Shown here: piece after piece, positions 1 to 20,779 of the stretch
How the letters are laid out: each line of letters begins with the position of its first letter
How positions within the stretch are numbered: position 1 is the first letter of the stretch
Assembly (NCBI GenBank): GCA_963695185.1
Contig: CAVOGH010000005.1
Span: 1,621,504 to 1,685,503 of the forward strand
DNA length: 64,000 nt
Direction of reading: 5' to 3'
From: an uncultured Gemmatimonadales bacterium
GTDB lineage: Bacteria; Gemmatimonadota; Gemmatimonadetes; Gemmatimonadales; GWC2-71-9
Program-made: the position numbers and the translations under genes
Notes under the pieces: generated by a model
Databases searched by the model: none
Seen by the model: the letters and a program-made list of their open reading frames with translations, nothing else
What the model was told of the DNA's origin: nothing

Positions 1-1
1 G

Positions 2-265
2 CTTCGCTCCACCGGCACCATCGGCCCAGGGTACCACGATGCCGCGAGCGCGTTCCTCGTGGGACATGGCGTCGCGGCCCGGCAGTCCATCGAGAGCTGC
101 GTGACCTGCCACACCGAGCGGGACTGCCTGCAGTGTCACTCCGCCCAGGGGGGCCGCCGCTTCAACCCGCACGGCCCGGGCTTCGACCCCGAGCGGCTCC
201 GCCGGCGCAACCCGCAGACCTGCGCCGCCTGCCACGGGCGGGCGATTCCCTCCGGCGACGACTAG
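2..265 (+). CDS. multihaem c-type cytochrome, C-terminal fragment (5' end outside window)
   Basis: The frame of ORF 59..265 stays open to the window edge. CVTCH, CLQCH and CAACH haem-binding motifs lie in the last ~70 codons. Confidence 0.7.
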   Translation, partial: LRSTGTIGPGYHDAASAFLVGHGVAARQSIESCVTCHTERDCLQCHSAQGGRRFNPHGPGFDPERLRRRNPQTCAACHGRAIPSGDD

Positions 266-369
266 GCGCGGTGACGGCGCCGCCTCGCCGGCTGGCTCCG
301 ACCGAAAGACAGCGCGGGCGGACCCGGTGAGGGTCCGCCCGCGTCTTGACTATCCGGCGTCGGTCCGGC

Positions 370-796
370 TCAGGCCTGCTTGCCCATCTCCTTGTATTGC
401 GCCTCGTAGCGAGATCCGCACTTGGCCAGCAGGGTGGTGGCCCGGAAGACGCCGTCCCGGCCGAGCCGGCCCTCCACGACGACCTCGATTTCCTGGGCGT
501 CGGTGAAGGTGTCCGGCGCCAGGCCGCGATAGGTGACCGGGTAGGTCTGGGCGCCGTCGGTCACCTGGAACTCGATCGTCTGGGTCGCGGCATCACGCTT
601 GACGGTACCCGGCACGACCTTGGCCTCCATCTTGAGGCCGGTTTCATACAGGCTCGGGATCGCGGGCGACCCGCTGGGCCAGCTCCGACGGCTTCATGGA
701 GTACTGCCCGAATTCCTTCACGCCCTGCGCCATGAGCACCGCGACGCTGGCGACGATGATTCCGGCTCCGAGGAGAAACTTGTGCCCCGCCTTCAT
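370..796 (-). CDS. ccmE: CcmE-like haem chaperone (System I), CxxxY variant; one apparent frameshift
   Basis: An N-terminal TM piece (MKAGHKFLLGAGIIVASVAVLMAQ, ATG at 796) joins ORF 370..630 (VPGTVKRD...VVVEGRL...LLAKCGSRYE). Together they align by eye with E. coli CcmE. The frame changes near 650. Confidence 0.7.
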
Positions 797-836
797 GATT
801 CGCTCCCTGGATTAAGCTGCTACCAATATAGCGTCG

Positions 837-2180
837 TCAGGCCACTTCGCGCCCCTCCCGGGCGGCCTCGGTCAGCTCCTGCCGGCCCATCCTGACCCCG
901 ATGGACTCCAGGAAGGCGTTCGGCGGGGTGCCGCCGGCAAAGACCCAGACGAAGTCGTTGGGCAGCTCCCGGTGGCCCCCAGGCACCTCGAGCGTGACGC
1001 TGTCCGGACGGATCTCGGAGGGCTGGGAGTTGAACAGCACCTCCAGCAGCCCCTTCCGCATGAACTCCCTGATCCGCTGGTCGTTGCGCTGCTTGAGGCG
1101 GGAGAAGACGTCCTTCCGGTAGGACAGGGTCACCTTGTTGCGCCGGTCGTGGGCCAGCCCCATGGCCGCTTCCACCGCGCTGTCTCCTCCGCCGACGATG
1201 AGGATCCGCTGGTCGCGATAGGCCTCCGCGTCCAGGAGGCTGTACATCACCTTGGGGAGCTCCTCCCCGGGGACGCCGAGCTTGCGCGGGGTCCCCCGGC
1301 GCCCGATGGCGAGGATCACGCTCAAGGCCCGGTAACGACCGGCCGTGGTGGTGATTGTGAAGGCATCATCAGGTTCCTTCTGGATGGCCTCCACCCGTTC
1401 CCGGGTCCGGACCTTGAGCCCCGCTTTCTTCGCGTGGCCCGCTGCCAGAACGCGAGCAGTTCCTCCTTGCCGATCTCGAGCTTGTTGAACTTCCCGCTCA
1501 GCGGAAACTCCACCGGGCTGGTCATGACCAGCTTCTGGCGCGGGTACTTGGCAACGGTACCACCGAGGTCCTCGGCCTCGAGCGTCAGGTAGCTCAGCCC
1601 CCGCTCCACCGCCCGCAGTGACGCCGACAGGCCGGCCGGACCCGCCCCGACGATGCACACATCCACGACCTCTCCCACCCGCCGCCGGCGCAGCGCCGGC
1701 AGCCGGCCGGCCAGCAGGTCCACGCAGTCGCGGCCCTGGTTGACGGCGTTCTTGATGAGGGCCAGCCCGCCCAGCTCTCCGACCACGAAGAGATTGCCGA
1801 GGTTGGTCTCGAGCTCGGGCGTAAGCGCCGGCAGGTCGGCACTCATGCTGGGCGGGCGCCATGACGATCTCGATGGCGCCCACCGGGCAGGCATCGGCGC
1901 AGAGCCCGTGGCCGATGCACTTCTCCGGCTGGACCAGGGCGGCCTTGCCGCCCAGCACCGCGAGCACCTCCCCCTCCGGGCAGACGCTCACGCAGGCGCC
2001 ACAGCCGATGCACCAGGTGACATCGATGTGCGGATGCTGGGCCTGGGGGCCGGTGGTCACCAGCTTGGCGTGCTCGGCGGAGATCCGGGCCTTCCGCTCC
2101 CGCCGGCGGAAGCCACGGATCTGCACGACGAGGGAAGCCGCGAGCAGGAGGCCGAAGGCCAGATAGAGCATGCTGTCCAT
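837..2180 (-). CDS. membrane-anchored 2x[4Fe-4S] ferredoxin domain fused to FAD/NAD(P) pyridine-nucleotide-disulfide oxidoreductase; at least 2 frameshifts
   Basis: N-terminal TM helix, then CIGCGACVSVCP and CIGHGLCADACP motifs. ORF 1322..1894 supplies the dinucleotide-binding motif VCIVGAGPAGLSA. The C-terminal part has ILIVGGGDSAVEAA. Confidence 0.7.
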   Translation of the reverse strand: MDSMLYLAFGLLLAASLVVQIRGFRRRERKARISAEHAKLVTTGPQAQHPHIDVTWCIGCGACVSVCPEGEVLAVLGGKAALVQPEKCIGHGLCADACPVGAIEIVMAPAQHECRPAGAYARARDQPRQSLRGRRAGRAGPHQERRQPGPRLRGPAGRPAAGAAPAAGGRGRGCVHRRGGSGRPVGVTAGGGAGAELPDARGRGPRWYRCQVPAPEAGHDQPGGVSAEREVQQARDRQGGTARVLAAGHAKKAGLKVRTRERVEAIQKEPDDAFTITTTAGRYRALSVILAIGRRGTPRKLGVPGEELPKVMYSLLDAEAYRDQRILIVGGGDSAVEAAMGLAHDRRNKVTLSYRKDVFSRLKQRNDQRIREFMRKGLLEVLFNSQPSEIRPDSVTLEVPGGHRELPNDFVWVFAGGTPPNAFLESIGVRMGRQELTEAAREGREVA

Positions 2181-2408
2181 GAGCGTCCTTCATCGGTGTG
2201 CATCGGATCGTTGCAGCTGCAACGCAATGGACCAACAGCCTGGAACGCGTCGTGCGCGCTCTCACATCTTCAAACACCTGTCGACAATAGAATGACTTAC
2301 GCCATCGTGCGCTGTGCCGAATCGCACCGAACTGCTTCTTGCAGTGTGCAGGCGCCGTGCCGCAGTGGCATCGCACATTGGCGAGTCGACCCTCATTCCC
2401 GATACGAC

Positions 2409-3391
2409 ATGTCCCAGATGCAGCAATCAACCGCCCGCAAGAGTTCGCCGTCCATTGCGGCGGGCACACACCCAGTCGCTCAGGATCGGCGGGCCGGCGC
2501 GGCCGCGGCCCCGGCGCGCCCGGGACCGCTCCCTCCGCGGCGTCTCCGCTCGACCATCGGGCTGACGCTGCTGGGCACCTTCGCCGGGCGCGGGGTACTA
2601 CTTCGCCCCGATGGCCGAGCGGGTGCGCTCGCCCCTGCATCCCTGGCTCCGGCCCTCGGGCTACGTGGGGCAGTCGGCCGGGATCCTGGCGCTGCTGATC
2701 TTCCTCTTCCTCTGGCTCTATCCGCTGAGGAAGCGGTTCCGCCGGCTGGCCTTTACCGGCTCCATGGCCCGCTGGCTGGACGTGCACGTGGCGCTGGCGC
2801 TGGTCCTCCCGTTCATCGGCGCCATCCACGCCAGCTGGCGGTTCGAGGGGATCATCGGGCTGGGATTCCTCTCCATGATGATCGTCTGGGCCAGCGGCAT
2901 CGCCGGCCGATACCTCTACGTCCACATCCCCCGCAGCGCGAGCGGCCTCGAGTTGAGCGCCGAGGAGATCGCGGAGGAGCGCCGGGGCCTGCTCGAGGAG
3001 CTCGCCGGGGTGTGCGGGCTGCCGGTCGGCACAGGTCGAGTCCCTGCTCCGCTCCGATCCGTCGCCCTGTGAAGGGCTGGGCTTCGGGCAGACCGCGGTC
3101 CGGATGGTCCGGGACGACGTGGACCGCTGGCGGGCGGCCCGGCGGCTGCGGCGGGTCTGCGCCGAGCGCACTGGGCGGCGGGCGGACTGGACCGGCGACG
3201 CCTGGGCCGGGTGCTGGCACTGGCCCGCCGGGAGATGTCGCTGACCCAGCAGGCCCGGATGCTGGAGGCCGTCCCACCGGATCTTCCGCTTCTGGCACGT
3301 GGTCCATCGCCCGTTCGCGGTCACCGCCCTGGCCGCCGTGCTGGTGCACGTCGGCGTGGTGGTGGCCATGGGCGCGACCTGGTTCTGGTGA
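2409..3391 (+). CDS. polytopic membrane protein with His in TM helices (function unknown); about 4 frameshifts
   Basis: Pieces from ORFs 1653..3524, 2611..3072 and 3211.. give hydrophobic helices, e.g. GILALLIFLFLWLYPL, HVALALVLPFIGAIHASW and FRFWHVVHRPFAVTALAAVLVHVGVVV. The stop TGA at 3389..3391 overlaps the next gene's GTG. Confidence 0.45.
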
Positions 3392-5420
3392 GCGCGTGCC
3401 CCGTCTCGGGAATCCTCCTCATGCTCCTGACCTGCCTCGCGGCCGCACCCCTTCAGGGCCAGATCTCCCCGGGACCCCTGGCCCGGGCCCACCGGACCCT
3501 CGAGGGGACGCGCCAACTGCGTGAAGTGCCACAGCGGAGGCCGCAACGCGCTGTCCGCGCAGTGCGCGTCCTGTCACCGGGACATCGGCTGGCTGGCCGA
3601 GCGGGAGCGCGGCTATCACGGAACCGCGGCGGTCCGGGCCCAGACCTGCGCCAGCTGCCACCCCGATCATGCCGGGAGCCGGCATTCGAGCTGGTGAAGT
3701 GGCCGGAGGGAAGCCCGGAACGGTTCGACCATCGCCGCGCCGGCTGGCCGCTGGAGCAGAGCCACGCCGACGCAAAGTGCGAGCGACTGCCACACCGCGC
3801 AATTCCAGGTAGGGCCCGGCCCGCGCACTGGCGGCCGGGCACGCAGGGCGGTCACTGGACCGGGCTGGAGTCGGGCTGCGCCAGCTGCCACGAGGACATC
3901 CACCGGGGCGCGCTGGGCGCCGACTGCCGTCAGTGCCACGATGCCGGGCGCTGGAAGGTGACGCCCGGGCTTCCGGCACGATACCACCAGCTATCCGCTG
4001 ACGGACAAGCATCGGCACCGTGGCCTGCGACAAGTGCCACCTCACCGCCGCGCTGGCCACCAAACGAGACCCCGCCGGCCATCCCGATTCCGGTCTATCG
4101 CCCGGTGCCACATCGGTCCTGCGCCAGCTGCCACCGGGACCCGCACGCGGGCCGCCTGGGTGAGTCCTGCACCGGGTGCCACACCACCCGAAGCTTCCAG
4201 GAGATCAACCGCGACAACTTCGATCACGACCGCACCCGGTACCCGCTGAAGGGCAAGCACGCCACGACGAAGTGCGCCGCCTGCCACGGCGACTTCTCCA
4301 CCGTGGCTCAGAAGAAGCCGGCCTACGCCACCTGCGCCAGCTGTCACGCCGACGCCCACAACAAGACCGGGACAGCTGGCGGGACAGGTCGAAGACTGCG
4401 GCACCTGCCACACCCTGGACGGCTTCTCCCCGGCCCGCCTGAGCCTGAGCACAGCATGCGCGGACCGCCTACCCGCTGGAGGGCAAGCACGCGCAGGTCC
4501 GCTGCGCCGCCTGCCACGGCAAGACGACCGGCACGCAGGCGGCGCGCTGGGGCAACGCCACGGGTGGTCCTGCAGCCCGCCTCGGCCACGTGCCGGTCCT
4601 GCCATGCCGACGATCACGGCACCCAGCTGGCCACCCGGCCCGATCGGGGAGAGTGCTCCGACCTGTCACACGCTGGCGGGGTGGACGCCCAGCCGATTCG
4701 ATGCCCAGGCCCACGCCCGGCTCAAGCTGCCGCTCGACGGCCGCCATGCGGAGGTTGGGTGCGCGGCCTGCCATGGGCCGTCGCGGCCCGGCCTGCCGCC
4801 GCTGGCCACCGGCCCCGCCATTGGCCGCGCGCAGTTCACCTTCCGGATCGCCGAGGTGGAGTGTGCCGCGTGCCACCAGGACCCTCACAGGTCGCGGTAT
4901 GCACCTGGGGGTGCCCTGCCAGTGGCGGGTGGCTGCGCCGCCTGCCACGACGCGCGGCAGTTCCGGCCCGCCAACGTCGCGGTCGCAGGCGCATGCCGAC
5001 TACGGCTTTGCGCTGGAGGGCGCCCACGGCGCCACGCCCGTGTGGCGGCTGCCACAAGGCCATCACCGCCACCGGAGCGCAGCCGCCCGGCCCTGCTGCG
5101 GCAGGCGGCGGTCCGACCGCTGGTGCTCGAGTCCACCCGCACCTGCGGCGAATGCCACAAGACGCCCCACGGCAGCCAGTTCGACTCGCGAGCCGATCGG
5201 CGGCCGCTGCGAGTCCTGCCACGGTACCGATCGCTTCAAGCCGGCGGACCGCTTCAACCACGACCGCGATGCCAGCTTCCGGCTCGGCGGCGGCCACGAG
5301 CGGGTGCCCTGCAATCGCTGCCACCCCACCGACGCGCCCGATGCCGGCGCTTCCCAGTTGCGATACCGCCCAGTCTCCGGCAAGTGCGAAAGCTGCCACG
5401 CCGGCAAGGAGGTCCGATGA
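3388..5420 (+). CDS. very large multihaem c-type cytochrome (~23 CxxCH by hand count), heavily frameshifted
   Basis: Signal-like N-terminus SGILLMLLTCLAAAPLQG. CxxCH motifs recur every ~25-30 codons but are spread over all three + frames (ORFs 3211.., 4590.., 4604..). Ends ...CESCHAGKEVR, stop at 5418..5420. Confidence 0.7.
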
Positions 5421-6667
5421 GAAACGCTCTGTGCGTCGCGCTGCTGCTCCTGTCGCCGGCCGGGCTCGCCGGTCAGGAGCGCACCCGATCTCCTCACGGC
5501 GAGCTGAGTGTCGCCTGCAACGTCTGTCACCGATCGGATAGCTGGACGGCGGTCCGAGTCGGCGGCAGCGGCGGATTTGACCACGGCCGGACGGGGATGC
5601 CGCTCACCGGCGCCCACGCCTCGGCCAGCTGCCGAGGCTGTCACGAGTCGCTCGACTTCAAGGGAACGGCAAGCACCTGTGCCAGCTGCCACCAGGACAC
5701 CCACCTCGGCGAACTCGGCGCCGACTGCAGCCAGTGCCACTCCACCCGGAGCTTCCTGGATCCCGGCGTCATGACCCGAGCGCATCAGCTCACCCGGTTC
5801 CCGCTGGTCGGCGCCCATCGAGCCGCCGACTGCACCGCGTGCCACTGCGCCCGCCGCCCAGGGACAGTTCCAGTTTGTCGGCCGGGCAACCGACTGCCTG
5901 AGCTGCCACCAGGCGGATTACCAGGGGGCCAGGGACCCCGATCACGCCGGCGGGGGATTCCCGACCGACTGCGCCCAGTGCCATGCCGTCACCGGTGGAA
6001 CCAGGCGCGGTTCAATCACGACCAGGCGGGCTTCCCGCTCACCGGCGCCCATCGGGCCACGCCCTGTGACCAGTGCCACGTCAACAGCCGCTTCACCGGC
6101 ACGCCGTCGGCCTGCGCCAGCTGCCACCAGGCCGACTACGACGGCACGACCGATCCGAACCACGCACAGGCCCAGTTCTCCACCGACTGCGTCGCCTGCC
6201 ACAGTACCACGTCCTGGAGCGGTGCCGCGTTCAATCATGCCCTGAGCGACTTTCCGCTCACCGGGGCACACCGCACCACGCCCTGCGACCAGTGCCATAC
6301 CAGCAACCGCTACACCGGCACCCCGACCGATTGTGCGGCCTGCCACCAGCAGGCCTACGACCAGACCAGCAACCCGGCCCACCAGCCGGCGGGCTTCCCG
6401 ACCGACTGCGCCTCGTGCCACACCACGACGCGCTGGGAGGGGGCCACCTTCGATCACGACGCACGCTTCTTCCGGATCTACAGCGGGAAGCACCGGAACG
6501 AATGGTCCAATTGCGCCACCTGCCACACGGAGGCCGCGGACTTCACCCAGTTCACCTGCCTGACGTGCCACGAGCACAACCAGACCAAGATGAACGACAC
6601 CCACAAGGGCAGGCAGGGATACCAGTACCTCAGCACGGAGTGCCTGCGATGCCATCCCCGGGTGTGA
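5417..6667 (+). CDS. 16-haem c-type cytochrome (doubled-CxxCH / cytochrome c7-like repeats)
   Basis: MRNALCVALLLLSPAGLAGQ signal. Sixteen CxxCH motifs counted. The ATG overlaps the upstream stop (ATGA). Two compensating frameshifts lie at about 5835-6000. Confidence 0.85.
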   Translation: MRNALCVALLLLSPAGLAGQERTRSPHGELSVACNVCHRSDSWTAVRVGGSGGFDHGRTGMPLTGAHASASCRGCHESLDFKGTASTCASCHQDTHLGELGADCSQCHSTRSFLDPGVMTRAHQLTRFPLVGAHRAADCTACHCARRPGTVPVCRPGNRLPELPPGGLPGGQGPRSRRRGIPDRLRPVPCRHRWNQARFNHDQAGFPLTGAHRATPCDQCHVNSRFTGTPSACASCHQADYDGTTDPNHAQAQFSTDCVACHSTTSWSGAAFNHALSDFPLTGAHRTTPCDQCHTSNRYTGTPTDCAACHQQAYDQTSNPAHQPAGFPTDCASCHTTTRWEGATFDHDARFFRIYSGKHRNEWSNCATCHTEAADFTQFTCLTCHEHNQTKMNDTHKGRQGYQYLSTECLRCHPRV

Positions 6668-8259
6668 TGAGGACGGGGCCCCGCCCCGCCTGGCTGCTCG
6701 GCGCGCGCCTCGTCGGGACACTGTTCCTGGGCCTGGTGCCTCGTCCCCGAGGCTACCGGCCAGGCAACGCCGGTCGAGCGCACCGCCAGCGTGGGGTACC
6801 TGGCCGGCCCGACGATCTACGTGAAAGCCGGCCGGGAGGACGGGCTGCGGGATGGGCAGCAGTTGATGGTGGTGCGGGCCGACTCGGTCGTCGCCACCCT
6901 CGTCGTGCAGTTCCTCTCTTCCCGCCAGGCGGCGTGCACCATTCTCAGCGGAACCGTCGAGGTTCGTCGTGGGCGACACAGTCCGATACACCGCCCGGCT
7001 CGACACGCTGCCGGCCCGGGCCAGCGCGGCGCCACGTCCTTCCCGCTCTCGCCGGGGGCCGGGCCTGCACGGACGGGTCGGCGCCCGCTACCTCGTCGCG
7101 GAGGAGGAAGGGCCCGGCGGCGGCTTCCGGCAGCCCTCCCTGGATCTCCGCCTCGATGGCTCGGCGCTGGGCGGGACACCCGTGGGCGCTGGCGCTCGAC
7201 CTCCGCACCCGGCGGACCACCAGCACCCGGGCGGAAGGCGCCAGCGAGGTGGACGGCAACACCCGCGTCTACCGCGCCGCCCTTTCGTACGGTCGCCCAG
7301 GATCACCGCTCGGGCTGACGGTTGGCCGCCAGTACCTCTCCGCCGTCACCGCCGTGAGCCTGTTCGATGGCGGACTGGTGGAATTGCGGTCCCGCCGGGT
7401 GGCGGCCGGCCTGTTCCTCGGCACCGAGCCCACACCCACCCTTGGGGTGAGCGGCAGACGTCCGCGAGGCCGGCGCGTATGTCCAGTGGAGCAACCGGGG
7501 CCGGCGGGCAGCCTTCATGGTCCCTTACTGCCGGCGGCGTAGGTTCGTATCAGGATGGCCGGTCCAACCGGGAGTTCGGTTTCCTGCAGGCCAGCCTGAA
7601 CAGCCGGACGGTCTCGCTGCAGGCGATGCAGGAAATAGATTACTACCGTCCCTGGAAGGTGGACCAGGGCGAGTCGTCGTGGTCCCTCACCAGCAGCTAC
7701 GTGAGCGGCGCCCTGCGGCCGGCGCGGTGGCTCAGCGTCCATGGGGCCTGGGACTCCCGCCGGCGGGTCCGGCTGTACCGGGACGCCACCAACCCGGCGG
7801 TGGCGTTCGACGACGCCTATCGCCAGGGTGTATGGGGTGGCGTCACCCTCCGGGGCGGCAGGGTATGGCTGGGCGGGAGATGCCCGGCGTTCCACCGGGG
7901 GAAGCGCCGGTGAGGCCACCGCGTGGACGACCACCGGAGGGATTGACCGGCTGACGCCGTTGCACCTCAGGCTGAGCGGTCGGGGTACCTGGTACCGGAC
8001 CCCTGCCGTGACCGGGCGGCTGTTCACCGGACGGGTGGCGGTGGAGGTCGCTACTCCGCTGCAGATCGAGCTCCAGGCCGGCACCCGGGTGGAGAACGCC
8101 CGGCTTGAGGGTCCCGCCGACCGGCGCTTTACGTGGTGGGGGGCGGACCTGGACCTGACCCTGGCGAGCTCCTGGTATCTTTCCCTCTCCGGCAACCGGG
8201 AGTACGGGCCGGAGGGTGCAATCACCCAGTGGTACAGCGGCCTCACCTGGCGCTTCTAG
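6667..8259 (+). CDS. putative outer-membrane beta-barrel protein; several frameshifts
   Basis: Start overlaps the cytochrome stop (TGATG) and the N-terminus is signal-like. Alternating-polarity strands throughout (e.g. RVYRAALSYG, WGADLDLTLASSWYLSLSG). C-terminal YSGLTWRF ends in an aromatic residue. Confidence 0.6.
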
Positions 8260-8302
8260 GACCGTGGAACCAGGCCATTTCGCGGGACGGAGAGGTACCG
8301 GT

Positions 8303-8689
8303 ATGACGGACGACAGCGAGCAGCGGGTCCCCTGGATCGCCTCGATCTTTCGGCCGGGCTACAAGGTGGCGCGGCCCACCATCCTGGCGCTTGGCCGCCT
8401 GCTGCGGGGTGAGGCGTCCCGCGACGGCTCTCCCGCGGCGCCTGCGTCCGAGGTATCCAGTAGCGAGGCCATCCCGCTCAGCGCGGTGCCGGGCCTGGCC
8501 GATATCGGCGGGGTGGCCAAGATCGAGACCGAGGACCACGCCGAACTGGGCATCGCCCGGGTGGGGCGGACCAGCTTCGTGGGATTCCGGCTGTCCGACG
8601 CGGAGCTGGAGGAGGTCGCCATTGATTATGACGACCAGACCGGCACTCTCCGCATCAGCGGGGCAGCCCCCAAGCCGCCGGCCATCTGA
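8303..8689 (+). CDS. hypothetical protein
   Basis: ATG inside ORF 8216..8689. The composition is non-repetitive and the acidic C-terminal half looks coding. I recognised no family. Confidence 0.4.
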   Translation: MTDDSEQRVPWIASIFRPGYKVARPTILALGRLLRGEASRDGSPAAPASEVSSSEAIPLSAVPGLADIGGVAKIETEDHAELGIARVGRTSFVGFRLSDAELEEVAIDYDDQTGTLRISGAAPKPPAI

Positions 8690-9669
8690 CCGGCGGCTCC
8701 TGACCTCCGCAGACCATCGGGCTGCACGCCCGCGAGCTCATCGCGCCGAGCAGGAACCCCGCCCCGCTCCCCACCGCATACAGCACGAAGGCCAGCAGGC
8801 TCATCGCCTGGGCCGGCACGATGCGCCGGGTCTCGGCCGGCGGCCTCGCAAGGACCCGCATCGCGCGCGTGGCCGGCACGGCGGCGATCAGACCGATCAG
8901 AATCGTCCCGGGCAGGCCGAACAGCGGCAGGGACAGCGTCAGCAGCAGCGCCGCCGGCCACCACCCCCACAAACAGCCGCCCGCCCCGTTCCCGGCCCAG
9001 GCGCACCACCAGCGTCCGCTTGCCACTCGCCTGGTCGGCGGAGAGGTCGGGAAACTCGTTGGCGAGCAGAAACGCCGCGATGAGGAGCCCAAGCGGGATG
9101 CGAGGCCAGCACCACCGCAGGATCCACTGACCCGCGCTGGACCAGGTAGGTGCCGGAAGCGATCAGCGGGCCGTAGCAGAGGGCGACCACCAGTTCCCCC
9201 CACCCACGGTAGGAGAGCCTGAGCGGCGGGGCGTGGTAGAAGAAGGCCCCGGCCGTGCCCGACCAGCCCGAGCCAGAGCACCTGCTCGGCCCGGAAGACC
9301 GCGAGCACGAGTCCCGCCGCGATGGCGATGACTATAGCCCGTGAGGGCGATCCCCCACGTCTCGCCCCGGCTCAGCAGTCCGTCCACCAGTACCCGCTTC
9401 CCTCCCGAGAAGGGGCTGCGATCTTCCGGCCCGACGGCGAGGTCGGTGCCCGAGTCGAAGTCGAAGATCTCCCCCGACGCGTTCTTGGCTACCTCCAGCG
9501 CGAAGATCCCGGCCACCGTGAGCGCCAGCCAGCCCCAGGCCAGCGGACCGGTGGCGGCCGCGGCGGCGGCGCCGAGGAACATCGAGGCGAAGGAGGCCAG
9601 CGAAATCTTCGGATCCGCCAGCCGCCACAGCCCGGCAGAGAAGCTGCGGCCGGTGGGCGCCCCGGTCAC
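8655..9669 (-). CDS. UbiA-family prenyltransferase (MenA-like); at least 3 frameshifts, 3' end uncertain
   Basis: [25 protein letters not shown] plus multiple TM segments across ORFs 9163..9693, 8939..9190 and 8655..9308. A GTG at 9669 overlaps the glpK stop (GTGA). Confidence 0.6.
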
Positions 9670-11167
9670 GTCGCGTCCCGGTGCCGGGCCCACGCCAGAG
9701 AGGTCGCGATGGCCCGCCGCCAGCCGGCCCAGCGGCGTTCCCGCTCGGCCGGGTCACCGGCGGGCTCGAACCGCTGGAACTTCCGGCCCGCCAGGAACTG
9801 GTCCACCGACGGCCACACGCCCAGGGCGAGTCCGGCCAGGCCCGCCGCGCCGAGCGCGGTGGTCTCGACGTTGTCCGGCCGCTCCACCGGCGCCCCCAGC
9901 AGGTCCGCCTGACACTGCATGAGCCAGTCGTTGGCGGCGGCCCCGCCGTCCACCCGGAGCACGGTGAGCGGCCGTCCCGGCATCGGCGGTCATGGCGCGG
10001 GCGAGGTCGGCGCTGGAGAAGGCCATCGCCTCGAGCGCGGCGCGGACCAGGTGGGCGCGGCTGGTCCCGCGGGTCAGGCCCACGATGGTGCCGCGCGCCT
10101 CGCTCTCCCAGTGGGGCGAGCCGAGCCCCACGAAGGCGGGCACGAAGTACACCCCGCCGGTGTCGGCGACACTCCGGGCCAGCGCCTCGGTCTCGGCCGC
10201 CGTGCCGACCAGCCCGAGCCCGTCCCGGAGCCACTGCACCGCGGCCCCGGCGATGAAGACGCTCCCTTCCAGCGCGTAGGCCGGCTCGCCCCGCGGGCCC
10301 GCCGCCGCCGTGACCAGCAGACCGTTCTGCGACTGCGCGGAATCTCCTGCCCCGTGAAGGTGAGCAGGAACGCCCCGGTGCCGTAGGTGTTCTTCGCCCA
10401 GGCCCGGCTGCGACGCACCCCTGGCCGAACAGCGCCGCCTGCTGGTCGCCGGCGATGCCGGCGATGGGCAGACTCCGGCCCAGGCACTCCGGCGTCGCTC
10501 TCGCCCGACCAGACCGCCGACGAGGGCACGATGCCGGGCAGCAGCGCCCGCGGGATTCCGAAGAGGGTGAGCAGCTCCGTCGTCCCAGTCGCGGGCACGC
10601 CAGGCCGTACAGCTGGGTGCGGGAGGCGTTGGTGTGATCGGTGACGTGCTGCCGGCCACCGGTGAGCCTGGCGATGAGCCAGGTGTCCATCGTCCCGGCG
10701 GCGAGTTCGCCCCGCTCCGCCCGGCGCCGGAGCGCCGGATCGCGGAGCAGCCACTCCAGCTTGGTGGCGGAGAAGTAGGGGTCCACCACCAGCCCGGTCC
10801 GCTCCCGGAGCATCGGCTCGAGCCCATCGGCCTGGAGCTGACGGCAGCGCTCCGCGGTGCGGCGGTCCTGCCAGACGATCGCCGGGGCCACCGGGCGCGA
10901 GACTCTGCCGGTCCCAGAGCACGACCGTCTCCCGCTGGTTGGTGATGCCGATGCCCACCGGCACCTCGCCCGCGCTGGGCGATCGCCTCGCGGGCCGCCT
11001 CGATGGTCACCCGGAAGATTTCTTCAGGATCGTGCTCCACCCAGCCGGGCTCGGGGAAATGCTGGGTGAACTCGCGATAGCCCCGTCCCAGAATCGCGGC
11101 CGTCCTGGTGGACGACTAGCGCGGTGGAACCGGTGGTGCCCTGATCGAGGGCGAGGATGGCGGACAT
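9666..11167 (-). CDS. glpK: glycerol kinase; multiple frameshifts
   Basis: [14 protein letters not shown]..., [61 protein letters not shown] and [13 protein letters not shown] lie in order across three minus-strand frames. Confidence 0.85.
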
Positions 11168-15778: not shown

Positions 15779-15800
15779 GGAGAGGCCGAGTGGCCTCTCC
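15779..15800 (+). terminator. hairpin downstream of crotonase gene
   Basis: GGAGAGGCC-gagt-GGCCTCTCC forms a perfect 9-bp stem. No U-tract follows. Confidence 0.4.
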
Positions 15801-15926
15801 GTCGCACACCTAGGGCGTCACTGAGCCGGCTACGTGTCCGCTGCGCTCCGTGACCCCGGAATCCGGCGTGGCCCCCGTGGGTGCTTGTCACGCCGGGCCG
15901 CCCTCTCTCTCACAGCGCAGAGCCAT

Positions 15927-18269
15927 ATGAGACGGGTCGATCGGAGGACGTTCCTCAAGGGGGTCGGAGTGGTCTCCGCGGCGACGGCCGCCTCGGCGGT
16001 GGTCCCGGGCATGGCGCTCCCGGCAACGAGCCCGGCCTTGCCGGGCGAGTCCGGCACCGCCTGGCACAAGACGCCCTGTCGTCTCTGCGGGGTGGGGTGT
16101 GGCCTCCTGGTCGGGATCCAGAACGGACGGGCGGTAGCCGTGAAGGGGGATCCCGACTCGCCGGTGAGCAGGGGATTGGCCTGCGTGAAGGGCTACAACT
16201 CGGTGCATGCCCTCTACGGGGCCGATCGGCTCACGCGGGCCAAGGTACGACGGGATGGTGTGCTGGTCGAGGTGCCGCTGAGCGAGGCGCTCGACCTGGT
16301 GGCGCGCAAGCTCCGCGACACGGCCCAGCGGCATGGCAAGAACAGCGTGGCGGTCTACGGCTCGGCCCAGTGGACCATCCCGGACGCCTATATCGCCTCG
16401 AAGCTGTTCAAGGGCGCGCTGGGGACCAATAACGTGGAGACCAGCACACGCCTGTACGCCGCCAGTGGCATGGCAGGCCTCCAGACCAGCTTCGGTCTCG
16501 ATGGCACGATCGGCTGCTACGAGGACATCGAGCACGCCGACTTCTTTGTGTTGTGGGACATCAACCTGGCCGAAACCGACCCTGTGCTGTTCTCCCGCAT
16601 GCTGGACCGCAAGCGGGCCAACCCGGCGGTTCGCATCATCGATATCGCCACCCGTACCACCCGCACCAGTTACGCCTGTGATCACTCGCTGCTGCACGCG
16701 CCGCACGCGGGGCCGGCCATCGCCAATGGGGTCTGCCACGAGATCGTGGCGCGGAAGTGGGCACAGCGCGAGTTCCTCGATCAGCACGTCGCATTCAAGC
16801 GCGGCAGGACCAACATCGGCGACGGTCTCGCCGACGATGCCCTCCTCGCGGACGAGGCCACCGACGCCACCTGGAACGAGTACGTCGCCTTCCTGGCCGA
16901 CTACCAGCCGGAGCGCGCCCAGGAGCTGTGCGGCATGTCGGCGGCCAGCATCCGCTGGCTGGCGTCGCTCTACGGCGACCCGTTGCGCAAGGTGATGTCC
17001 CTCTGGGGTCAGGAGGTGAACCAGGATGTGCGCGGCACCTGGATGAACAACCTGCTCTACAACATTCATCTGCTGGTGGGCAAGGTCGCGACCCCGGGCA
17101 ACAGCCCCCTCTGCCTCACCGGGCAGCCCGGCGGCGGCAGCGGGGTGCACGATGCCGGCAGCCTGACCCACACGCTGCCCCGTGGGTTCGTGCAGAAGGA
17201 GGAGGACCGCCGCCGGGCCGCCGACATCTGGGGCGTACCGGCGGAGACCATCGACCCCCAGCCCACCGGCCCGGCGCTCTCGATGTTTCGCCGGCTGGAA
17301 CGGGGCGATATCCGGTTCCTCTGGATCTCGGCCACCGATCCGATGGTCAGCCTCCCCAACCTGGACCGCTACCGCCGTGCGGCGCGCAGCGGGGACCGCT
17401 TCATCGTCGTCTCGGAAGCCTACCCGACGCCCACGACGGACGTGGCGGACGTCGTTCTTCCCGCGGCGATGTGGCTGGAACGCGAGGGCATCTACGCCAA
17501 CGCGGAACGGCGCCTGCAGCACTTCGCGCGGATCGTGACGCCCCCCGGGGACGCGACCAGCGACGCCTGGCAGATGATCGAGGTCGCCCGACGGCTCGGT
17601 TTCGAGAAGCTCTTCCCCTTCGATTCCCGCCGTCACGTCGAGCAGATCTGGGAGGAGTACGGCCGCTTCCACCGGGAGCCACCCAGCGCGCTCCCGCCCC
17701 TCGCCGAACTGCGCGCCCAGCCGGGGGTGCTGTGGCCGTATGCGGCAGGCCGGGGAACCCGGTGGCGCTACAACGCCGCGCAGGACCCCGCGGCCGACGG
17801 TTCCCGAGGTGCCTTCGACTTCTACGGCCACCCGGACCACCGCGCGTGGATCTGGCTCCGCCCCTACGAGCCCCCGGCGGAGTCGCCAGACCGGGAGTAT
17901 CCGGTGTGGCTCACGACCGGCGCCGTGCTGGAACAATGGGGCACGGGCTCGATGACCCAGCGCATCCCGACGCTGCACCGCGCCCTGCCCCATGCATATG
18001 TCGAGATCAACAAGGACGACGCTCGCGACCTGGGCGTCCGGAATCGCGAGGCCGTCCGGCTGCTGAGCCGGCGCGGCTCGATCGAGCTCGAGGCCCGTAT
18101 CGACTATCGCTCTCAGCCGCCCCGCGGCCAGGTCTTCGTCCCCTCGTTCGATGAGGCGCGGCCGGTGAATCGGCTCACCCTGGACGCCTGCTGTCCGCTG
18201 TCGGGGCAGCCCGATGGCGGCAAGTGTGCGGTGCGGGTGGAGCGGCTGCCGGGCCGGGGCGGCCCGTGA
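15927..18269 (+). CDS. NapA-like periplasmic molybdopterin (bis-PGD) oxidoreductase with non-canonical Mo-ligand position
   Basis: Tat motif RRTFLKG and CRLCGVGCG...C 4Fe-4S motif. Collinear by eye with E. coli NapA along its full length. RHCMAS is replaced by RLYAAS. Intact 780 codons. Confidence 0.9.
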   Translation: MRRVDRRTFLKGVGVVSAATAASAVVPGMALPATSPALPGESGTAWHKTPCRLCGVGCGLLVGIQNGRAVAVKGDPDSPVSRGLACVKGYNSVHALYGADRLTRAKVRRDGVLVEVPLSEALDLVARKLRDTAQRHGKNSVAVYGSAQWTIPDAYIASKLFKGALGTNNVETSTRLYAASGMAGLQTSFGLDGTIGCYEDIEHADFFVLWDINLAETDPVLFSRMLDRKRANPAVRIIDIATRTTRTSYACDHSLLHAPHAGPAIANGVCHEIVARKWAQREFLDQHVAFKRGRTNIGDGLADDALLADEATDATWNEYVAFLADYQPERAQELCGMSAASIRWLASLYGDPLRKVMSLWGQEVNQDVRGTWMNNLLYNIHLLVGKVATPGNSPLCLTGQPGGGSGVHDAGSLTHTLPRGFVQKEEDRRRAADIWGVPAETIDPQPTGPALSMFRRLERGDIRFLWISATDPMVSLPNLDRYRRAARSGDRFIVVSEAYPTPTTDVADVVLPAAMWLEREGIYANAERRLQHFARIVTPPGDATSDAWQMIEVARRLGFEKLFPFDSRRHVEQIWEEYGRFHREPPSALPPLAELRAQPGVLWPYAAGRGTRWRYNAAQDPAADGSRGAFDFYGHPDHRAWIWLRPYEPPAESPDREYPVWLTTGAVLEQWGTGSMTQRIPTLHRALPHAYVEINKDDARDLGVRNREAVRLLSRRGSIELEARIDYRSQPPRGQVFVPSFDEARPVNRLTLDACCPLSGQPDGGKCAVRVERLPGRGGP

Positions 18270-19075
18270 GTGGCGACCGGCACCCGACGGCGGTCGCGCT
18301 GGGACTCTTCCTGGCGGCGGCCGCCGCCACGGCGGTGGCCGCGGGGAGCGTAGCGCTGAAACGCGGCGCCCAAGCGCGGGCGCGGGCGCCCGTGCTCGTC
18401 CCGGTCGGCATCGTGGCCGCGCCGGAGGAGCCGATCCATGCGGAGGCGCAGGTGTTCCGTACCACCCCCGCGATGCTGGCGCTGGTACCCGCGACTCGCC
18501 GGGAACGCTCGGCCCACCCGCGCACCCTGAAGACGGTACGCTTCCTCCGCGCCTATGAGGGCGCGCCCCCACGCATCCCGCACCCCCTCACGGCCGACGA
18601 GTTCCGCACCGACGCCTGCCGGACGTGTCATGAGCGTGGTGGCTACTCGGTGCGCTTCTCCGCGTACGTGCCGCTGACGCCGCACCCGGAACGCGGCATC
18701 TGTCTCCAGTGCCATGTGGGCGAGGACGCCGTCCTGGGCGTGGCCGAAGCCAGCAGGAATCCCAACTCCCGGTGTCCGCTCTGTCACGGGCCCAGCGGCG
18801 GCCCGGTCCGGGCCGCCGCCTCGGCGACGTGGCCGACGACGGTCTGGCCAAGGCTCTCCCCGAAGACACCGGACCGCGCCCCTCCGCCGGTCCCGCACGA
18901 CCTGCAGTACCGGCAGAACTGCCTCACCTGCCATGCCGGCCCCGCGGCCGTCGCCGAGATCCGCACCACTCACCCGGAGCGGGCCAACTGCCGCCAGTGC
19001 CATGTCCTGCTGGATCCGGAAGCAGAGGCCTTTGTTCGTCCCGCGGGAGTGGTCGCCTACGGAGATGCACCATGA
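18266..19075 (+). CDS. membrane-anchored pentahaem cytochrome with two NapB-like modules
   Basis: The GTG overlaps the napA-like stop (GTGA). It has a TM helix and five CxxCH motifs. Two modules match the NapB signature: PPRIPH...CRTCH...CLQCH and PPPVPH...CLTCH...CRQCH. Confidence 0.75.
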   Translation: MSGDRHPTAVALGLFLAAAAATAVAAGSVALKRGAQARARAPVLVPVGIVAAPEEPIHAEAQVFRTTPAMLALVPATRRERSAHPRTLKTVRFLRAYEGAPPRIPHPLTADEFRTDACRTCHERGGYSVRFSAYVPLTPHPERGICLQCHVGEDAVLGVAEASRNPNSRCPLCHGPSGGPVRAAASATWPTTVWPRLSPKTPDRAPPPVPHDLQYRQNCLTCHAGPAAVAEIRTTHPERANCRQCHVLLDPEAEAFVRPAGVVAYGDAP

Positions 19076-19797
19076 ACCAGACACTGTACGGGAGCGCCGT
19101 GGTGTGCGTTGCAGCGGCATGGCTGGTCTCCAGTTGCCGTCCGACCGACCCGGCGCATGGAAGTCCCGCGCCGGGGGAGACGGTCGCGGTGACGATCGAC
19201 TCGGCGACCGCGGCCCGGAACGCGACCCTTGAGCCCGGCGCGCTCGCGACCGTGCCCGCGGTCCCGGTCGAACGCTGGAAGGGACCGGGCGAGCGCCCCT
19301 TCGAGGTGGCTCTTCGGAGTGCCGTTCCCGAGGCCGGACACGCGCGCATGTTCGGCACCATCACGCTGCCGATCGCGCTCCGCAGCCGCACGGCTGCCAT
19401 CAACCAGTATCCCTGCACGTCCTGCCACCTCGGCCGGAAGGTGATCATGGCCAACCGCCGGATCGGCGATGCCCACAACAACATCCAGCCGGTGCACCCG
19501 GAACAGACCGGGGCCGTGTGTTCGACCTGCCACTCGGACGGCGACGTGGCGCTGCTGACCCTCAAGGGCGGGGAGCGGGCGACGCTGGATGAAAGCTACC
19601 GGCTGTGCGCGCAGTGTCATTTCCCGGAGGCGAAGACGTGGGCGGGCGGGGCGCACGGGAAGCGACTCGATGGCTGGCAGGGACGGCGAGTCGTGATGGC
19701 CTGCACCGACTGCCACGACCCGCACATGCCCGCGGTCGAGGTGCGCATCCCCTTCCGCGCGCCGGAACTCGAGCGCAGCCGCGGTGGCAGCCGATGA
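19072..19797 (+). CDS. tetrahaem c-type cytochrome lipoprotein
   Basis: ATGA overlap with the upstream stop. Lipobox LVSSC. Haem motifs CTSCH, CSTCH, CAQCH and CTDCH. Confidence 0.8.
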   Translation: MNQTLYGSAVVCVAAAWLVSSCRPTDPAHGSPAPGETVAVTIDSATAARNATLEPGALATVPAVPVERWKGPGERPFEVALRSAVPEAGHARMFGTITLPIALRSRTAAINQYPCTSCHLGRKVIMANRRIGDAHNNIQPVHPEQTGAVCSTCHSDGDVALLTLKGGERATLDESYRLCAQCHFPEAKTWAGGAHGKRLDGWQGRRVVMACTDCHDPHMPAVEVRIPFRAPELERSRGGSR

Positions 19798-20772
19798 CGG
19801 CCGAGCGATCACCCGGCGAGCCGACCGGCGCCGGAGACGCCAGCCTCCTGCAGAAGTGCGTCGACCGGCGCGGGGCACTGGGCATCCTCGCCGGGGGCAT
19901 GGCCGCCGGGATGCAGGCGGTGAGCGCGTGTACACCGCTCAGCGCCGAGACGGACGAGGAGCGCGAAGTCAAGCTCCTGGCCTGGCGGGAGTACATCAAG
20001 GGCAACTACCGCTTCATGACGGAGGCCGAGCGAGCGGAGACGATCGCCCGCCTCGAGCGCCTCGCCCAGCTGCAGCACGGCGTGGACGTTTCCATCCAGT
20101 CCACCGGCGCCCAGCCCGGCGTGGTGTTCGGCTACGCCTTCAACATCTCGAAGTGCAAGGGGTTCCGTCGCTGCATCGAAGCCTGCATCAACGAAAACAA
20201 CCTCGACCGCAATGCCGACACCCAGTACATCCGGATCTTCGAGATCGAGGACGGCAACGTGGATCTCGACGAGGGGGACGCGACCTTCCAGCACGAGGTG
20301 CCGGCGGAGGGCCACTTCTACCTGGGAACCCAGTGCTTCCAGTGCGCCAACCCGCCCTGCGTGAAGGTCTGCCCCGTCGGCGCCACCTGGCAGGAGCCCG
20401 ACGGCATCACGGTCGTCGACTACGACTGGTGCATCGGATGCCGCTACTGCATGGCCGCCTGCCCCTACTGGGCCCGGCGCTTCAACTGGGGCGATCCCGA
20501 GGTGCCGCCGGAGGAGGTCAACCCCAACCAGCACTACCTGGGGAATCGCGCCCGCATGAAGGGACGGGTCGAGAAGTGCACCTTCTGCATCCATCGCACC
20601 CGGCAGGGCCGCCTGCCCGGCCTGCGCCGAGGCGTGCCCCACCGGGGCGCGGGTCTTCGGCAACCTGCTGGATCCCGACTCGGAGATCCGGTGGGTGCTC
20701 GCCAACAAGCGGGTGTTCCGGCTGAAAGTGGATCTGAAGACCGAGCCGCGCTTCTGGTACTTCAGCGATTGA
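19794..20772 (+). CDS. NrfC/DmsB-type 4x[4Fe-4S] protein, copy 1; one frameshift near 20618
   Basis: ATGA overlap with the upstream stop. Tat-like DRRGALGILAGG. Four Cys clusters (CKGFRRCIEAC, CFQCANPPCVKVCP, CIGCRYCMAACP, CTFC...ACAEACP). Confidence 0.85.
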
Positions 20773-20779
20773 GGTAACG

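Follow-up and report, generated by a model that had tools for sequence, protein, structure and literature searches.

A mechanistic understanding of extracellular electron transfer exists only for the Mtr systems and those of the Geobacter type, which occur in a few Proteobacteria and Desulfobacterota. Two further porin-cytochrome systems that have been predicted, PCC3 and PCC4, share an inner-membrane protein (IMP) of about 300 residues with five transmembrane (TM) helices, an SGxxG motif on TM4 and a W-x3-H-x13-H motif on each of TM3 and TM5, which was likened to the di-haem core of the ferric reductase domain (FRD) and NADPH oxidase (NOX) proteins (He et al., 2017, PMC5566968). PCC3 is found in Sideroxydans lithotrophicus ES-1 (Slit_0867-0870 and Slit_1446-1449), Leptothrix cholodnii SP-6 and other Proteobacteria (PMC5566968, PMC9900912). 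Its periplasmic multihaem cytochrome holds 21-27 haems in trihaem repeats of about 60-66 residues, at 26-27 residues per haem, and its second multihaem cytochrome, predicted to be extracellular, holds 10-35 or more. The PCC3 porin of L. cholodnii is predicted to have 22 strands, and many others are far larger, with up to 42 predicted strands. Here we describe a cassette of this kind from a 64-kb stretch of DNA (about 70% G+C; the window) on contig CAVOGH010000005.1 of an uncultured Gemmatimonadales bacterium (GCA_963695185.1). Its core genes encode an iron-sulfur (Fe-S) flavoprotein, an IMP, two multihaem cytochromes (MHC1 and MHC2) and an outer-membrane β-barrel. We read the region as a five-component trans-envelope electron conduit, a PCC3-like porin-cytochrome system probably fed from NAD(P)H, and give this reading a probability of about 0.6. 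The cassette is known here from its genes, from predictions and from comparison, from which we infer where the cytochromes are localised and in which direction electrons flow.

Comparison with Described Porin-Cytochrome Systems

An earlier note on this DNA had recognised a porin-cytochrome conduit with the same logic as MtrCAB and the Geobacter Pcc systems but different parts. That description is supported by the barrel model, by the lack of similarity to MtrB or PioB and by the co-inheritance of the genes. The reference kind has to be changed, the closest known system being the predicted PCC3, whose IMP motifs match exactly. On the features that have been described, the window IMP carries the PCC3/PCC4 signature (five TM helices, SGxxG and two W-x3-H-x13-H motifs), and the same cluster holds a 23-haem cytochrome at 28.7 residues per haem, a 16-haem cytochrome with 13-40 haems in its relatives, and a 22-strand barrel. 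PCC3, however, has been reported only in Alpha-, Beta- and Gammaproteobacteria, whereas the cassette occurs in Gemmatimonadota, Bacteroidota, KSB1 and allied phyla. PCC3 is described without a flavoprotein partner and with an assumed link to quinone, in contrast to the cassette with its flavoprotein. PCC4, which combines 4-, 5- and 10-haem periplasmic cytochromes with a porin and an IMP, was considered and rejected, as the window has two cytochromes of 23 and 16 haems.

Like MtrCAB, MtoAB and PioAB, the cassette pairs a multihaem cytochrome with an outer-membrane barrel, and the Mto and Pio systems are likewise without a lipoprotein cytochrome. The cassette barrel differs from theirs in not belonging to the MtrB_PioB family and in having 22 rather than 26 strands. 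Its cytochromes are c7-repeat proteins with 23 and 16 haems in place of DmsE-family decahaems; the MtrA/DmsE decahaem model TIGR03508 reaches 51.5 bits against a cutoff of 192, in MHC1 only, and the OmcA/MtrC model TIGR03507 reaches 29 bits against 209. The inner-membrane partner is also not CymA, CbcL or ImcH. Geobacter Pcc (OmbB-OmaB-OmcB) and Ext clusters, according to published accounts (PMC4282303, PMC4245776), co-encode a porin-like protein with periplasmic and outer multihaem cytochromes. The Pcc cytochromes have 8 and 12 haems, the outer one is a lipoprotein, and there is no dedicated IMP or flavoprotein; the cassette has 23 and 16 haems and no lipoprotein. The family libraries used, which include no OmbB model, revealed no homology between the two. 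Membership in the Mtr/Mto/Pio, Geobacter Pcc or Cyc2 systems was rejected on these defining features. For Cyc2, a fused monohaem porin, the deciding feature is that the barrel carries no CxxCH.

A recent survey of metagenome-assembled genomes (MAGs) from karst describes a PCC group 1 with a porin of about 20 strands beside a large multihaem cytochrome (FEMS Microbiol Ecol 2026, fiag047, PMC13264449). A gene for a 'ferredoxin-NADP+ reductase' lies nearby in seven of its 11 clusters, and functional coupling was noted as possible (PMC13264449). By its description, this group differs in having one 4-5 kb 'decahaem' gene, and no IMP is mentioned.

Reading Frames in the Window

Single-base indels disrupt essentially every gene of the window, at about 1 per 200 nt (1 per 150-400 nt). 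Because these frameshifts make the raw open reading frames (ORFs) unusable, proteins were read by way of L001, a relative in which the genes are intact. This 87-kb contig comes from an uncultured Gemmatimonadaceae MAG and holds an 82%-identical homologue of the barrel. L001 encodes, in order, a partial cytochrome (plus strand), a 508-aa protein, a 481-aa cytochrome with 16 CxxCH motifs, CcmE (minus), a 453-aa Fer4 and Pyr_redox flavoprotein (minus), a 321-aa membrane protein (plus), cytochromes of 660 aa with 23 CxxCH and of 414 aa with 16, a 532-aa protein, a 128-aa protein, UbiA (minus) and GlpK (minus). The window is collinear with it and starts inside the 481-aa cytochrome.

The plus-strand region 3388-8259 (4.9 kb) contains about 27 single-base frameshifts, and frame correction by a codon-bias Viterbi procedure assigns about 14, 3 and 6 shifts to its three genes. 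Compared with a related MAG, the indels are mainly 1-nt insertions and are not confined to homopolymers. So many frameshifts within 4.9 kb are what a decaying pseudogene array would show, yet this explanation is extremely improbable. A similar density is seen in the housekeeping neighbours glpK (9332-11040), ubiA (8745-9669) and ccmE, and in the flavoprotein gene; glpK and ubiA lie on the minus strand, as assigned from L001. Frame-specific G+C content at third codon positions (GC3), taken together with stop-to-stop segments, shows frame segments that are free of stops inside and have a GC3 of about 0.85-0.95. The window proteins are 82-99% identical to those of L001. Since the frameshifts are window-wide, with stop-free segments, high GC3 and this identity to an intact relative, they are taken as read or assembly errors rather than decay.

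The Two Large Cytochromes

A six-frame scan finds 40 intact CxxCH motifs on the plus strand between 98 and 6641, and 42 after two motifs broken by frameshifts are restored. They are grouped as three motifs at 98, 125 and 221, 21 motifs between 3518 and 5385, and 16 between 5516 and 6641. This enrichment is far beyond chance, because the rest of the 64 kb holds one 9-motif cluster at 18.6-19.7 kb and two isolated motifs. Both broken motifs lie in the 23-haem gene, and the orthologues in L001 have 16, 23 and 16 motifs. The count of about 42 haem motifs first made on this DNA, with about 23 in one gene, is thus correct (3 + 23 + 16, the L001 orthologue of that gene having 23).

The four plus-strand genes, from the IMP to the barrel, are linked by stop/start overlaps or by gaps of at most 8 nt. 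Among the three overlaps that the earlier note had listed, ATGA at 5417, which is kept in L001, and TGATG at 6667 hold. GTGA at 3388 exists but may not be the true start, and comparison with L001 suggests that the 23-haem gene begins with the GTG at 3396, which lies 4 nt past the stop and is followed by a 1-nt indel.

MHC1 (3388..5420, plus strand, with its start at GTG 3388 or 3396) is a c7-repeat cytochrome of about 660 aa that carries 21 intact and two broken motifs across about 14 frameshifts. Its intact orthologue matches Pfam Cytochrome_C7 over nine stretches (E 2e-32). MHC2 (5417..6667, plus strand), whose ATG overlaps the MHC1 stop, is a 414-aa protein with 16 CxxCH motifs, built from a trihaem repeat of about 74 aa. 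According to Pfam, both cytochromes are chains of cytochrome c7-like units. MHC1 uses 28.7 residues per haem and MHC2 25.9. The spare His residues, one or more for each haem in either protein, suffice for bis-His ligation throughout. Both begin with Sec signal peptides, neither of which is followed by a lipobox Cys, and a search of the two proteins against PDB sequences returned no solved relative.

The haem numbers of the pair behave differently among the 44 Gemmatimonadales loci in which both cytochrome ORFs are intact. For MHC1 the number is 23 in 39 of these loci and 20 in the other five, and 23 again in the cultured Bacteroidota strain Emticicia oligotrophica DSM 17448. MHC2 takes the values 13, 15, 16, 17, 19, 20, 21, 22, 24, 26, 27, 30, 32, 33, 34 and 36 over the same loci, and 40 in Emticicia. 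A constant MHC1 would fit a wire bridging a fixed gap, the periplasm, and the free length of MHC2 would suit a component that reaches outside the cell or is under no constraint of distance.

Directly after its signal peptide (window about 3460-3530; L001 6796-6900), MHC1 carries the motif (Q)-x-SPG-x-L-x-x-x-H-x-x-L-E-G-x-x-N-C-x-x-CH. The motif is kept across phyla, in Gemmatimonadota, Emticicia, Acidobacteria and two further MAG loci (L087 and L088), and is a candidate docking end for the IMP. In an Acidobacteria MAG (GCA_022340775.1; locus L085, 9958-12474), one ORF of at least 839 aa with at least 33 haems ends at the contig edge. Its N-terminal part is MHC1-like and its C-terminal part MHC2-like, so that the two cytochromes are seemingly fused.

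The Predicted Outer-Membrane Barrel

The last gene of the cassette (6667..8259, plus strand) encodes an outer-membrane protein of about 530 aa, with an ATG that overlaps the MHC2 stop and about six frameshifts. The ORF ending in YSGLTWRF, as first reported, is real after frame correction. AlphaFold2, run on the 82%-identical L001 orthologue with an 81-sequence alignment, gives a model with a mean pLDDT of 84.6. The model consists of a signal-peptide helix, a six-strand N-terminal β domain (39-112), a disordered linker and 22 antiparallel strands (136-531). The modelling that the earlier note had proposed thus yields a barrel and not a soluble protein. The family consensus ends in ...LTWRF, with R531 and F532 invariant. 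By standard barrel geometry, the estimated Cα radius is about 20 Å for 22 strands, against 23.5 Å for 26.

Comparison with MtrB and PioB, likewise suggested at the outset, shows no similarity, in agreement with a different part. Searched at E<=1 with the intact orthologue and at E<=0.1 with fragments from the window, Pfam, including MtrB_PioB (PF11854), gives no match, and NCBIfam gives none either. The 81-sequence profile finds no chain at E<=10 among PDB sequences. Foldseek returns generic large barrels only (PapC, the OprD family and AlgE), at template modelling (TM) scores of 0.3-0.5, with no Mtr entry among the 50 best matches of the model. The frame-corrected 6667-8259 product has more than 326 homologues, of which all named ones are a 'hypothetical protein' and all named organisms are Gemmatimonadales or Gemmatimonadota MAGs. 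A profile of distant barrels also recovers members in Zixibacteria, Calditrichaeota and Latescibacterota MAGs. Going by the model, the barrel belongs to a new 22-strand family without annotation.

Conservation Across Genomes

A scan of one genome per species finds a barrel relative in 157 species, and the best 80 are all Gemmatimonadota MAGs. Co-occurrence was scored in the 51 Gemmatimonadales loci in which 6.5 kb or more of sequence precedes the barrel gene. The divergent flavoprotein, the IMP, both cytochromes and the barrel are present in all 51, and CcmE in 26. The earlier gene order had included both of the minus-strand genes, the flavoprotein and CcmE. The flavoprotein is indeed a core part, divergently transcribed, and CcmE is optional.

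Five homologous proteins are also encoded on plasmid pEMTOL02 of E. oligotrophica DSM 17448 (L083; NC_018749.1, 81299-89995), in the order CcsA, IMP, flavoprotein, 23-haem cytochrome, 40-haem cytochrome and a 538-aa barrel homologue. A KSB1 MAG (L086) has the order flavoprotein, IMP, 20-haem, 22-haem, barrel. Two further MAG loci have IMP, 19-haem, 19-haem, barrel, flavoprotein (L087), and barrel, IMP, 19-haem, 15-haem with the flavoprotein on the opposite strand (L088). That the gene content stays constant while the order is permuted strongly supports joint action of the five proteins.

Variant loci exist within Gemmatimonadales (L027, L028, L036 and L037, and also L029, L072 and L077). One variant runs IMP, 23-haem, barrel, 20-haem, 13-haem, with three cytochromes and the barrel in the middle, and some barrel homologues of the variant loci are 650-720 aa long. 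The plasmid-borne Emticicia cassette is preceded by the gene for a 1028-aa CcsA (System II), and the same plasmid (NC_018749.1, 73203-77251) holds a further small cluster of redox and outer-membrane genes.

The distribution of the barrel bears on whether the system reaches the outside at all. The cytochromes could serve in the periplasm only, as an electron store or a reductase of soluble substrates, with the barrel a co-travelling substrate porin. Neither cytochrome has a lipid anchor, and the nearest Foldseek barrels are substrate channels or ushers (OprD, AlgE, PapC), at a low TM-score. In Pfam and NCBIfam, however, the barrel is unrelated to any nutrient-porin family. In at least five lineages its co-inheritance with the cytochromes has survived the shuffling of the genes, and its translation is coupled to that of MHC2. 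An MHC2 range of 13-40 haems also fits poorly with the fixed width of a periplasm. A purely periplasmic role is very unlikely.

Inner-Membrane Protein and Flavoprotein

The IMP (2409..3391, plus strand; about 321 aa, five TM helices) is the proposed di-haem-b transmembrane electron carrier. In an alignment of 39 homologues, W118-x3-H122-x13-H136 on TM3, S158-G-x-x-G162 on TM4 and W290-x3-H294-x13-H308 on TM5 are invariant. Both W-x3-H-x13-H motifs are present in 82 of 98 full-length representatives of the family. Hydropathy and the positive-inside rule place the N-terminus inside and one His of each pair at each membrane face. Between TM4 and TM5 lies a 127-aa insert that is K/R-rich, helical and cytoplasmic, and that looks like a docking surface. 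The IMP profile reaches 2417 cluster representatives at E<=1e-3, including Fidelibacterota and Acidobacteriota MAGs, and one relative gives a weak cytochrome b561 match. From the invariant residues, the protein would bind two b-type haems between the two H-x13-H pairs.

This arrangement recalls MsrQ with Fre of E. coli and the NOX and FRE proteins, in which His pairs on two helices hold haem b and a cytoplasmic NAD(P)H flavoreductase provides the partner (PMC12525009, PMC5676040). In MsrQ-Fre, too, the reductase is a separate protein and the acceptor is periplasmic or external. The two invariant H-x13-H pairs on TM3 and TM5 of the cassette IMP may be counterparts of those of the FRD/NOX proteins. 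Unlike these, the cassette IMP has five helices instead of six and no match to Pfam Ferric_reduct. Its reductase is membrane-anchored with two [4Fe-4S] clusters, and electrons would pass to a 39-haem wire, where the known systems use MsrP or O2.

The flavoprotein gene (837..2198, minus strand, frameshifted) encodes a membrane-anchored protein of about 450 aa, the proposed cytoplasmic electron-input subunit, with matches to Fer4 families and to Pyr_redox_3 (E 4e-31). Pfam thus recovers this Fer4 and Pyr_redox flavoprotein, as well as CcmE, both of which the earlier note had named without their strand; both are on the minus strand. The flavoprotein consists of an N-terminal TM helix, a 2x[4Fe-4S] ferredoxin domain and a YpdA/TrxR-type FAD/NAD(P)H domain, and its nearest PDB entries are YpdA/Bdr (7a7b) and TrxR-type ferredoxin-NADP reductases. 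Because the TM helix (residues 10-28) is followed by a K/R-rich stretch, the catalytic domains are placed in the cytoplasm.

In every inspected context the IMP adjoins an NAD(P)H-type Fe-S flavoprotein or reductase. A homologous Fer4 and Pyr_redox partner stands beside it in L084, L086, L087, L088 and Emticicia, and in L084 the pair occurs without cytochromes in view. One protein (P0266) is a fusion of IMP, Fer4 and Pyr_redox. In the Acidobacteria MAG locus L085, a non-homologous FAD_binding_6/NAD_binding_1/Fer2 reductase lies beside the IMP, followed by the cytochrome of at least 33 haems. Fusion together with non-orthologous replacement indicates that electrons pass directly from NAD(P)H onto the haems in the membrane. 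On gene content, the flavoprotein would accordingly be the fifth core part of the cassette, with the implication that NAD(P)H and not quinol supplies the electrons.

The same conduit could instead be coupled to the quinone pool, with the IMP a quinol oxidase or quinone reductase and the flavoprotein doing a separate job, either NAD(P)H:quinone reduction or the supply of reductant for maturing the 39 haem sites. The IMP was drawn as a cytochrome-b-like, quinone-active protein by He et al. (2017, PMC5566968), and MsrQ, an FRD-type protein, binds ubiquinone. In two phyla the cassette has a cytochrome c maturation gene as its neighbour (that of CcmE in the window, that of CcsA in Emticicia), which would suit a flavoprotein that serves haem sites. 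Yet the invariant neighbour is the flavoprotein, in 51 of 51 loci as against 26 for CcmE, and no maturation gene is present in L086-L088. The fusion P0266, the different NAD(P)H reductase beside the IMP in Acidobacteria and the conserved 127-aa cytoplasmic insert, with its resemblance to a docking surface, also speak against coupling to quinone, which we regard as unlikely.

Proposed Electron Path

In the path favoured here, the cytoplasm-facing, membrane-anchored flavoprotein would take electrons from NAD(P)H and pass them from FAD to its two [4Fe-4S] clusters. The IMP would receive them, first at a cytoplasmic-side and then at a periplasmic-side haem b. MHC1, the 23-haem c7-repeat cytochrome of fixed length, would serve as the wire across the periplasm. 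MHC2, with its 16 haems (13-40 in relatives), would sit in or pass through the 22-strand barrel and deliver electrons to an extracellular acceptor, for example metal oxides, humic substances or possibly O2. From the comparisons above we infer that haem b is bound, which proteins touch, that MHC2 is exposed at the surface, what the acceptor is and which way electrons flow.

Outward electron flow is favoured because the partner is of the NAD(P)H type, and using Fe(II) to reduce NAD(P)+ would be an uphill step that works against the membrane potential. An inward conduit would draw electrons into the cell from Fe(II), Mn(II), minerals or cathodes outside it. Neutrophilic Fe(II) oxidisers are where PCC3 first came to light, with a proposed role in electron uptake, and L088 adjoins genes for a cbb3 oxidase. 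Multihaem wires are reversible in the Mtr and Mto systems. The NAD(P)H-type partner nevertheless counts against uptake, as the reduction of NAD(P)+ from Fe(II) should be strongly uphill, and the PCC3 clusters of ES-1 are down-regulated on Fe(II). The hosts are mainly heterotroph-like soil and sediment MAGs, as the 2026 karst survey (PMC13264449) also inferred for its PCC-bearing MAGs. Electron uptake is quite unlikely.

Several points weigh against the outward, NAD(P)H-fed conduit. The likeness to PCC3 is one of shared described features. PCC3 is itself only predicted, and both of its clusters in ES-1 are down-regulated on Fe(II) (Hoover et al., 2023, PMC9900912). The link proposed for the IMP by He et al. 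(2017, PMC5566968) was to the quinone pool and not to NAD(P)H. The IMP has no match in Pfam at E<=1 (including Ferric_reduct, PF01794, and cytochrome b) or in NCBIfam. Its AlphaFold model has a moderate pLDDT of 69.8 and no Foldseek match below E 0.5 in the PDB; for a model of that quality, the missing fold match appears uninformative and is not counted against the haem-b role. The IMP-flavoprotein fusion proteins are possibly artefacts of gene calling. For MHC2 at the cell surface, it is adverse that both cytochromes are without a lipobox and that no secretion system is encoded nearby. Finally, every cassette gene is frameshifted in the window itself.

A more specific version of the NAD(P)H-fed conduit may be considered, which we put forward tentatively and hold to be somewhat doubtful. 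In it, the cassette would be a quinone-independent, split NOX-like trans-envelope oxidoreductase with a wire of about 39 haems and new di-haem-b and barrel families. The membrane-tethered flavoprotein would dock on the five-helix IMP, and cytoplasmic NAD(P)H would be oxidised directly by minerals, humics or O2. As a matter of speculation, the path favoured above would in any case dissipate rather than build proton-motive force, and its role would be the disposal of reducing equivalents or reduction at the cell surface, not classical respiration.

Neighbouring Features

The window opens with the 3' end of a 16-haem, 481-aa cytochrome (2..265, plus strand; last 87 codons and stop), which is 99% identical to residues 395-481 of L001 2227-3672 and matches Paired_CXXCH_1. 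A terminator-like hairpin at 313..343 (minus strand; 13-bp stem with 12 G-C pairs) lies between this cytochrome tail and the convergent ccmE, and is the only terminator-like site in 1-9400. Because the hairpin separates the two, the partial cytochrome is placed in a different unit. The earlier note had made it a member of the cluster, but it belongs to a separate upstream unit, behind the hairpin and two opposite-strand genes.

In many Gemmatimonadales the upstream module consists of a cytochrome of at least nine haems, a 508-aa protein with a signal peptide and the 16-haem paired-CxxCH cytochrome (L001 1-3672). The 508-aa protein, a putative outer-membrane protein, has no match in Pfam or NCBIfam apart from a weak OMP_b-brl hit (E 0.13). 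It was rejected as a paralogue of the barrel (hhalign probability 2.6%). The module may be a second porin-cytochrome unit.

The System I haem chaperone CcmE (370..796, minus strand; 141 aa, with a frameshift near 656) is identified by Pfam CcmE (E 2e-23), by NCBIfam CcmE and by tblastn in two frames. At 403-423 (minus strand) its motif reads KCGSRYE, in which Cys replaces the canonical haem-binding His (the C-x-x-x-Y variant), and the motif LLAKCGSRYE is identical in L001 and L003. The Cys-type CcmE variant is known from archaea and Desulfovibrio.

The divergent intergenic region between the flavoprotein and IMP genes (2199..2408), where the GC3 signal is lost, is presumed to be a shared promoter region. 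A scan of 2199-2408 for the sigma-70 consensus gave no match and is uninformative for this phylum. Downstream of the barrel, a conserved 128-aa protein (8303..8689, plus strand), 95% identical to L001 11642-12028, is a possible accessory. It has no signal peptide and no match in Pfam or NCBIfam; we take its C-terminus to be faintly reminiscent of small heat-shock proteins. Its gene adjoins the cassette in many, not all, Gemmatimonadales loci, and lies near ccmE instead in L008 and L010.

A second redox cluster is found in the window at about 15800-20800 (plus strand), with a molybdopterin oxidoreductase, two cytochromes and a Tat-signal 4Fe-4S NrfC/DmsB-like protein. One cytochrome has five CxxCH motifs and is membrane-anchored (18617-18989), and the other has four (19414-19702). 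The cluster resembles the alternative-complex-III-like or NrfD-type modules of KSB1 and Planctomycetota MAGs (PMC10732223). In the relative L003, the molybdoenzyme immediately adjoins ccmE.

Novelty and Significance

The searchable literature holds no description of the cassette in Gemmatimonadota, Emticicia or KSB1, and the nearest account is the 2026 karst survey. As far as that literature shows, what is new is the host range across Gemmatimonadota, Bacteroidota, KSB1 and allied phyla, the Fe-S flavoprotein as fifth core component, the contrast between a fixed 23-haem and a variable 13-40-haem cytochrome, and a cultured carrier. The barrel family and the membrane haem-protein family are both without any annotation.

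With the cassette, Gemmatimonadota and allied phyla, which abound in soils and sediments, would possess a complete wire from the inner membrane to the outside. The pair of a fixed 23-haem and a variable 13-40-haem cytochrome offers a natural test of haem number as bridged distance. The cultured carrier, E. oligotrophica DSM 17448, makes the hypothesis testable and gives a handle on the PCC3 of iron oxidisers.

The constant pairing of IMP and flavoprotein suggests a bypass of the quinone pool and would recast the energetics of such conduits and their role, as redox balancing, not respiration. If the split NOX-like reading is true, a conduit would be present in phyla that are common in soil and sediment but for which extracellular electron transfer is not known, and O2 as acceptor would give extracellular superoxide. 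The system would then be widespread in the group of Gemmatimonadota, Bacteroidota, KSB1, Zixibacteria, Calditrichota and Latescibacterota, and in Acidobacteriota.

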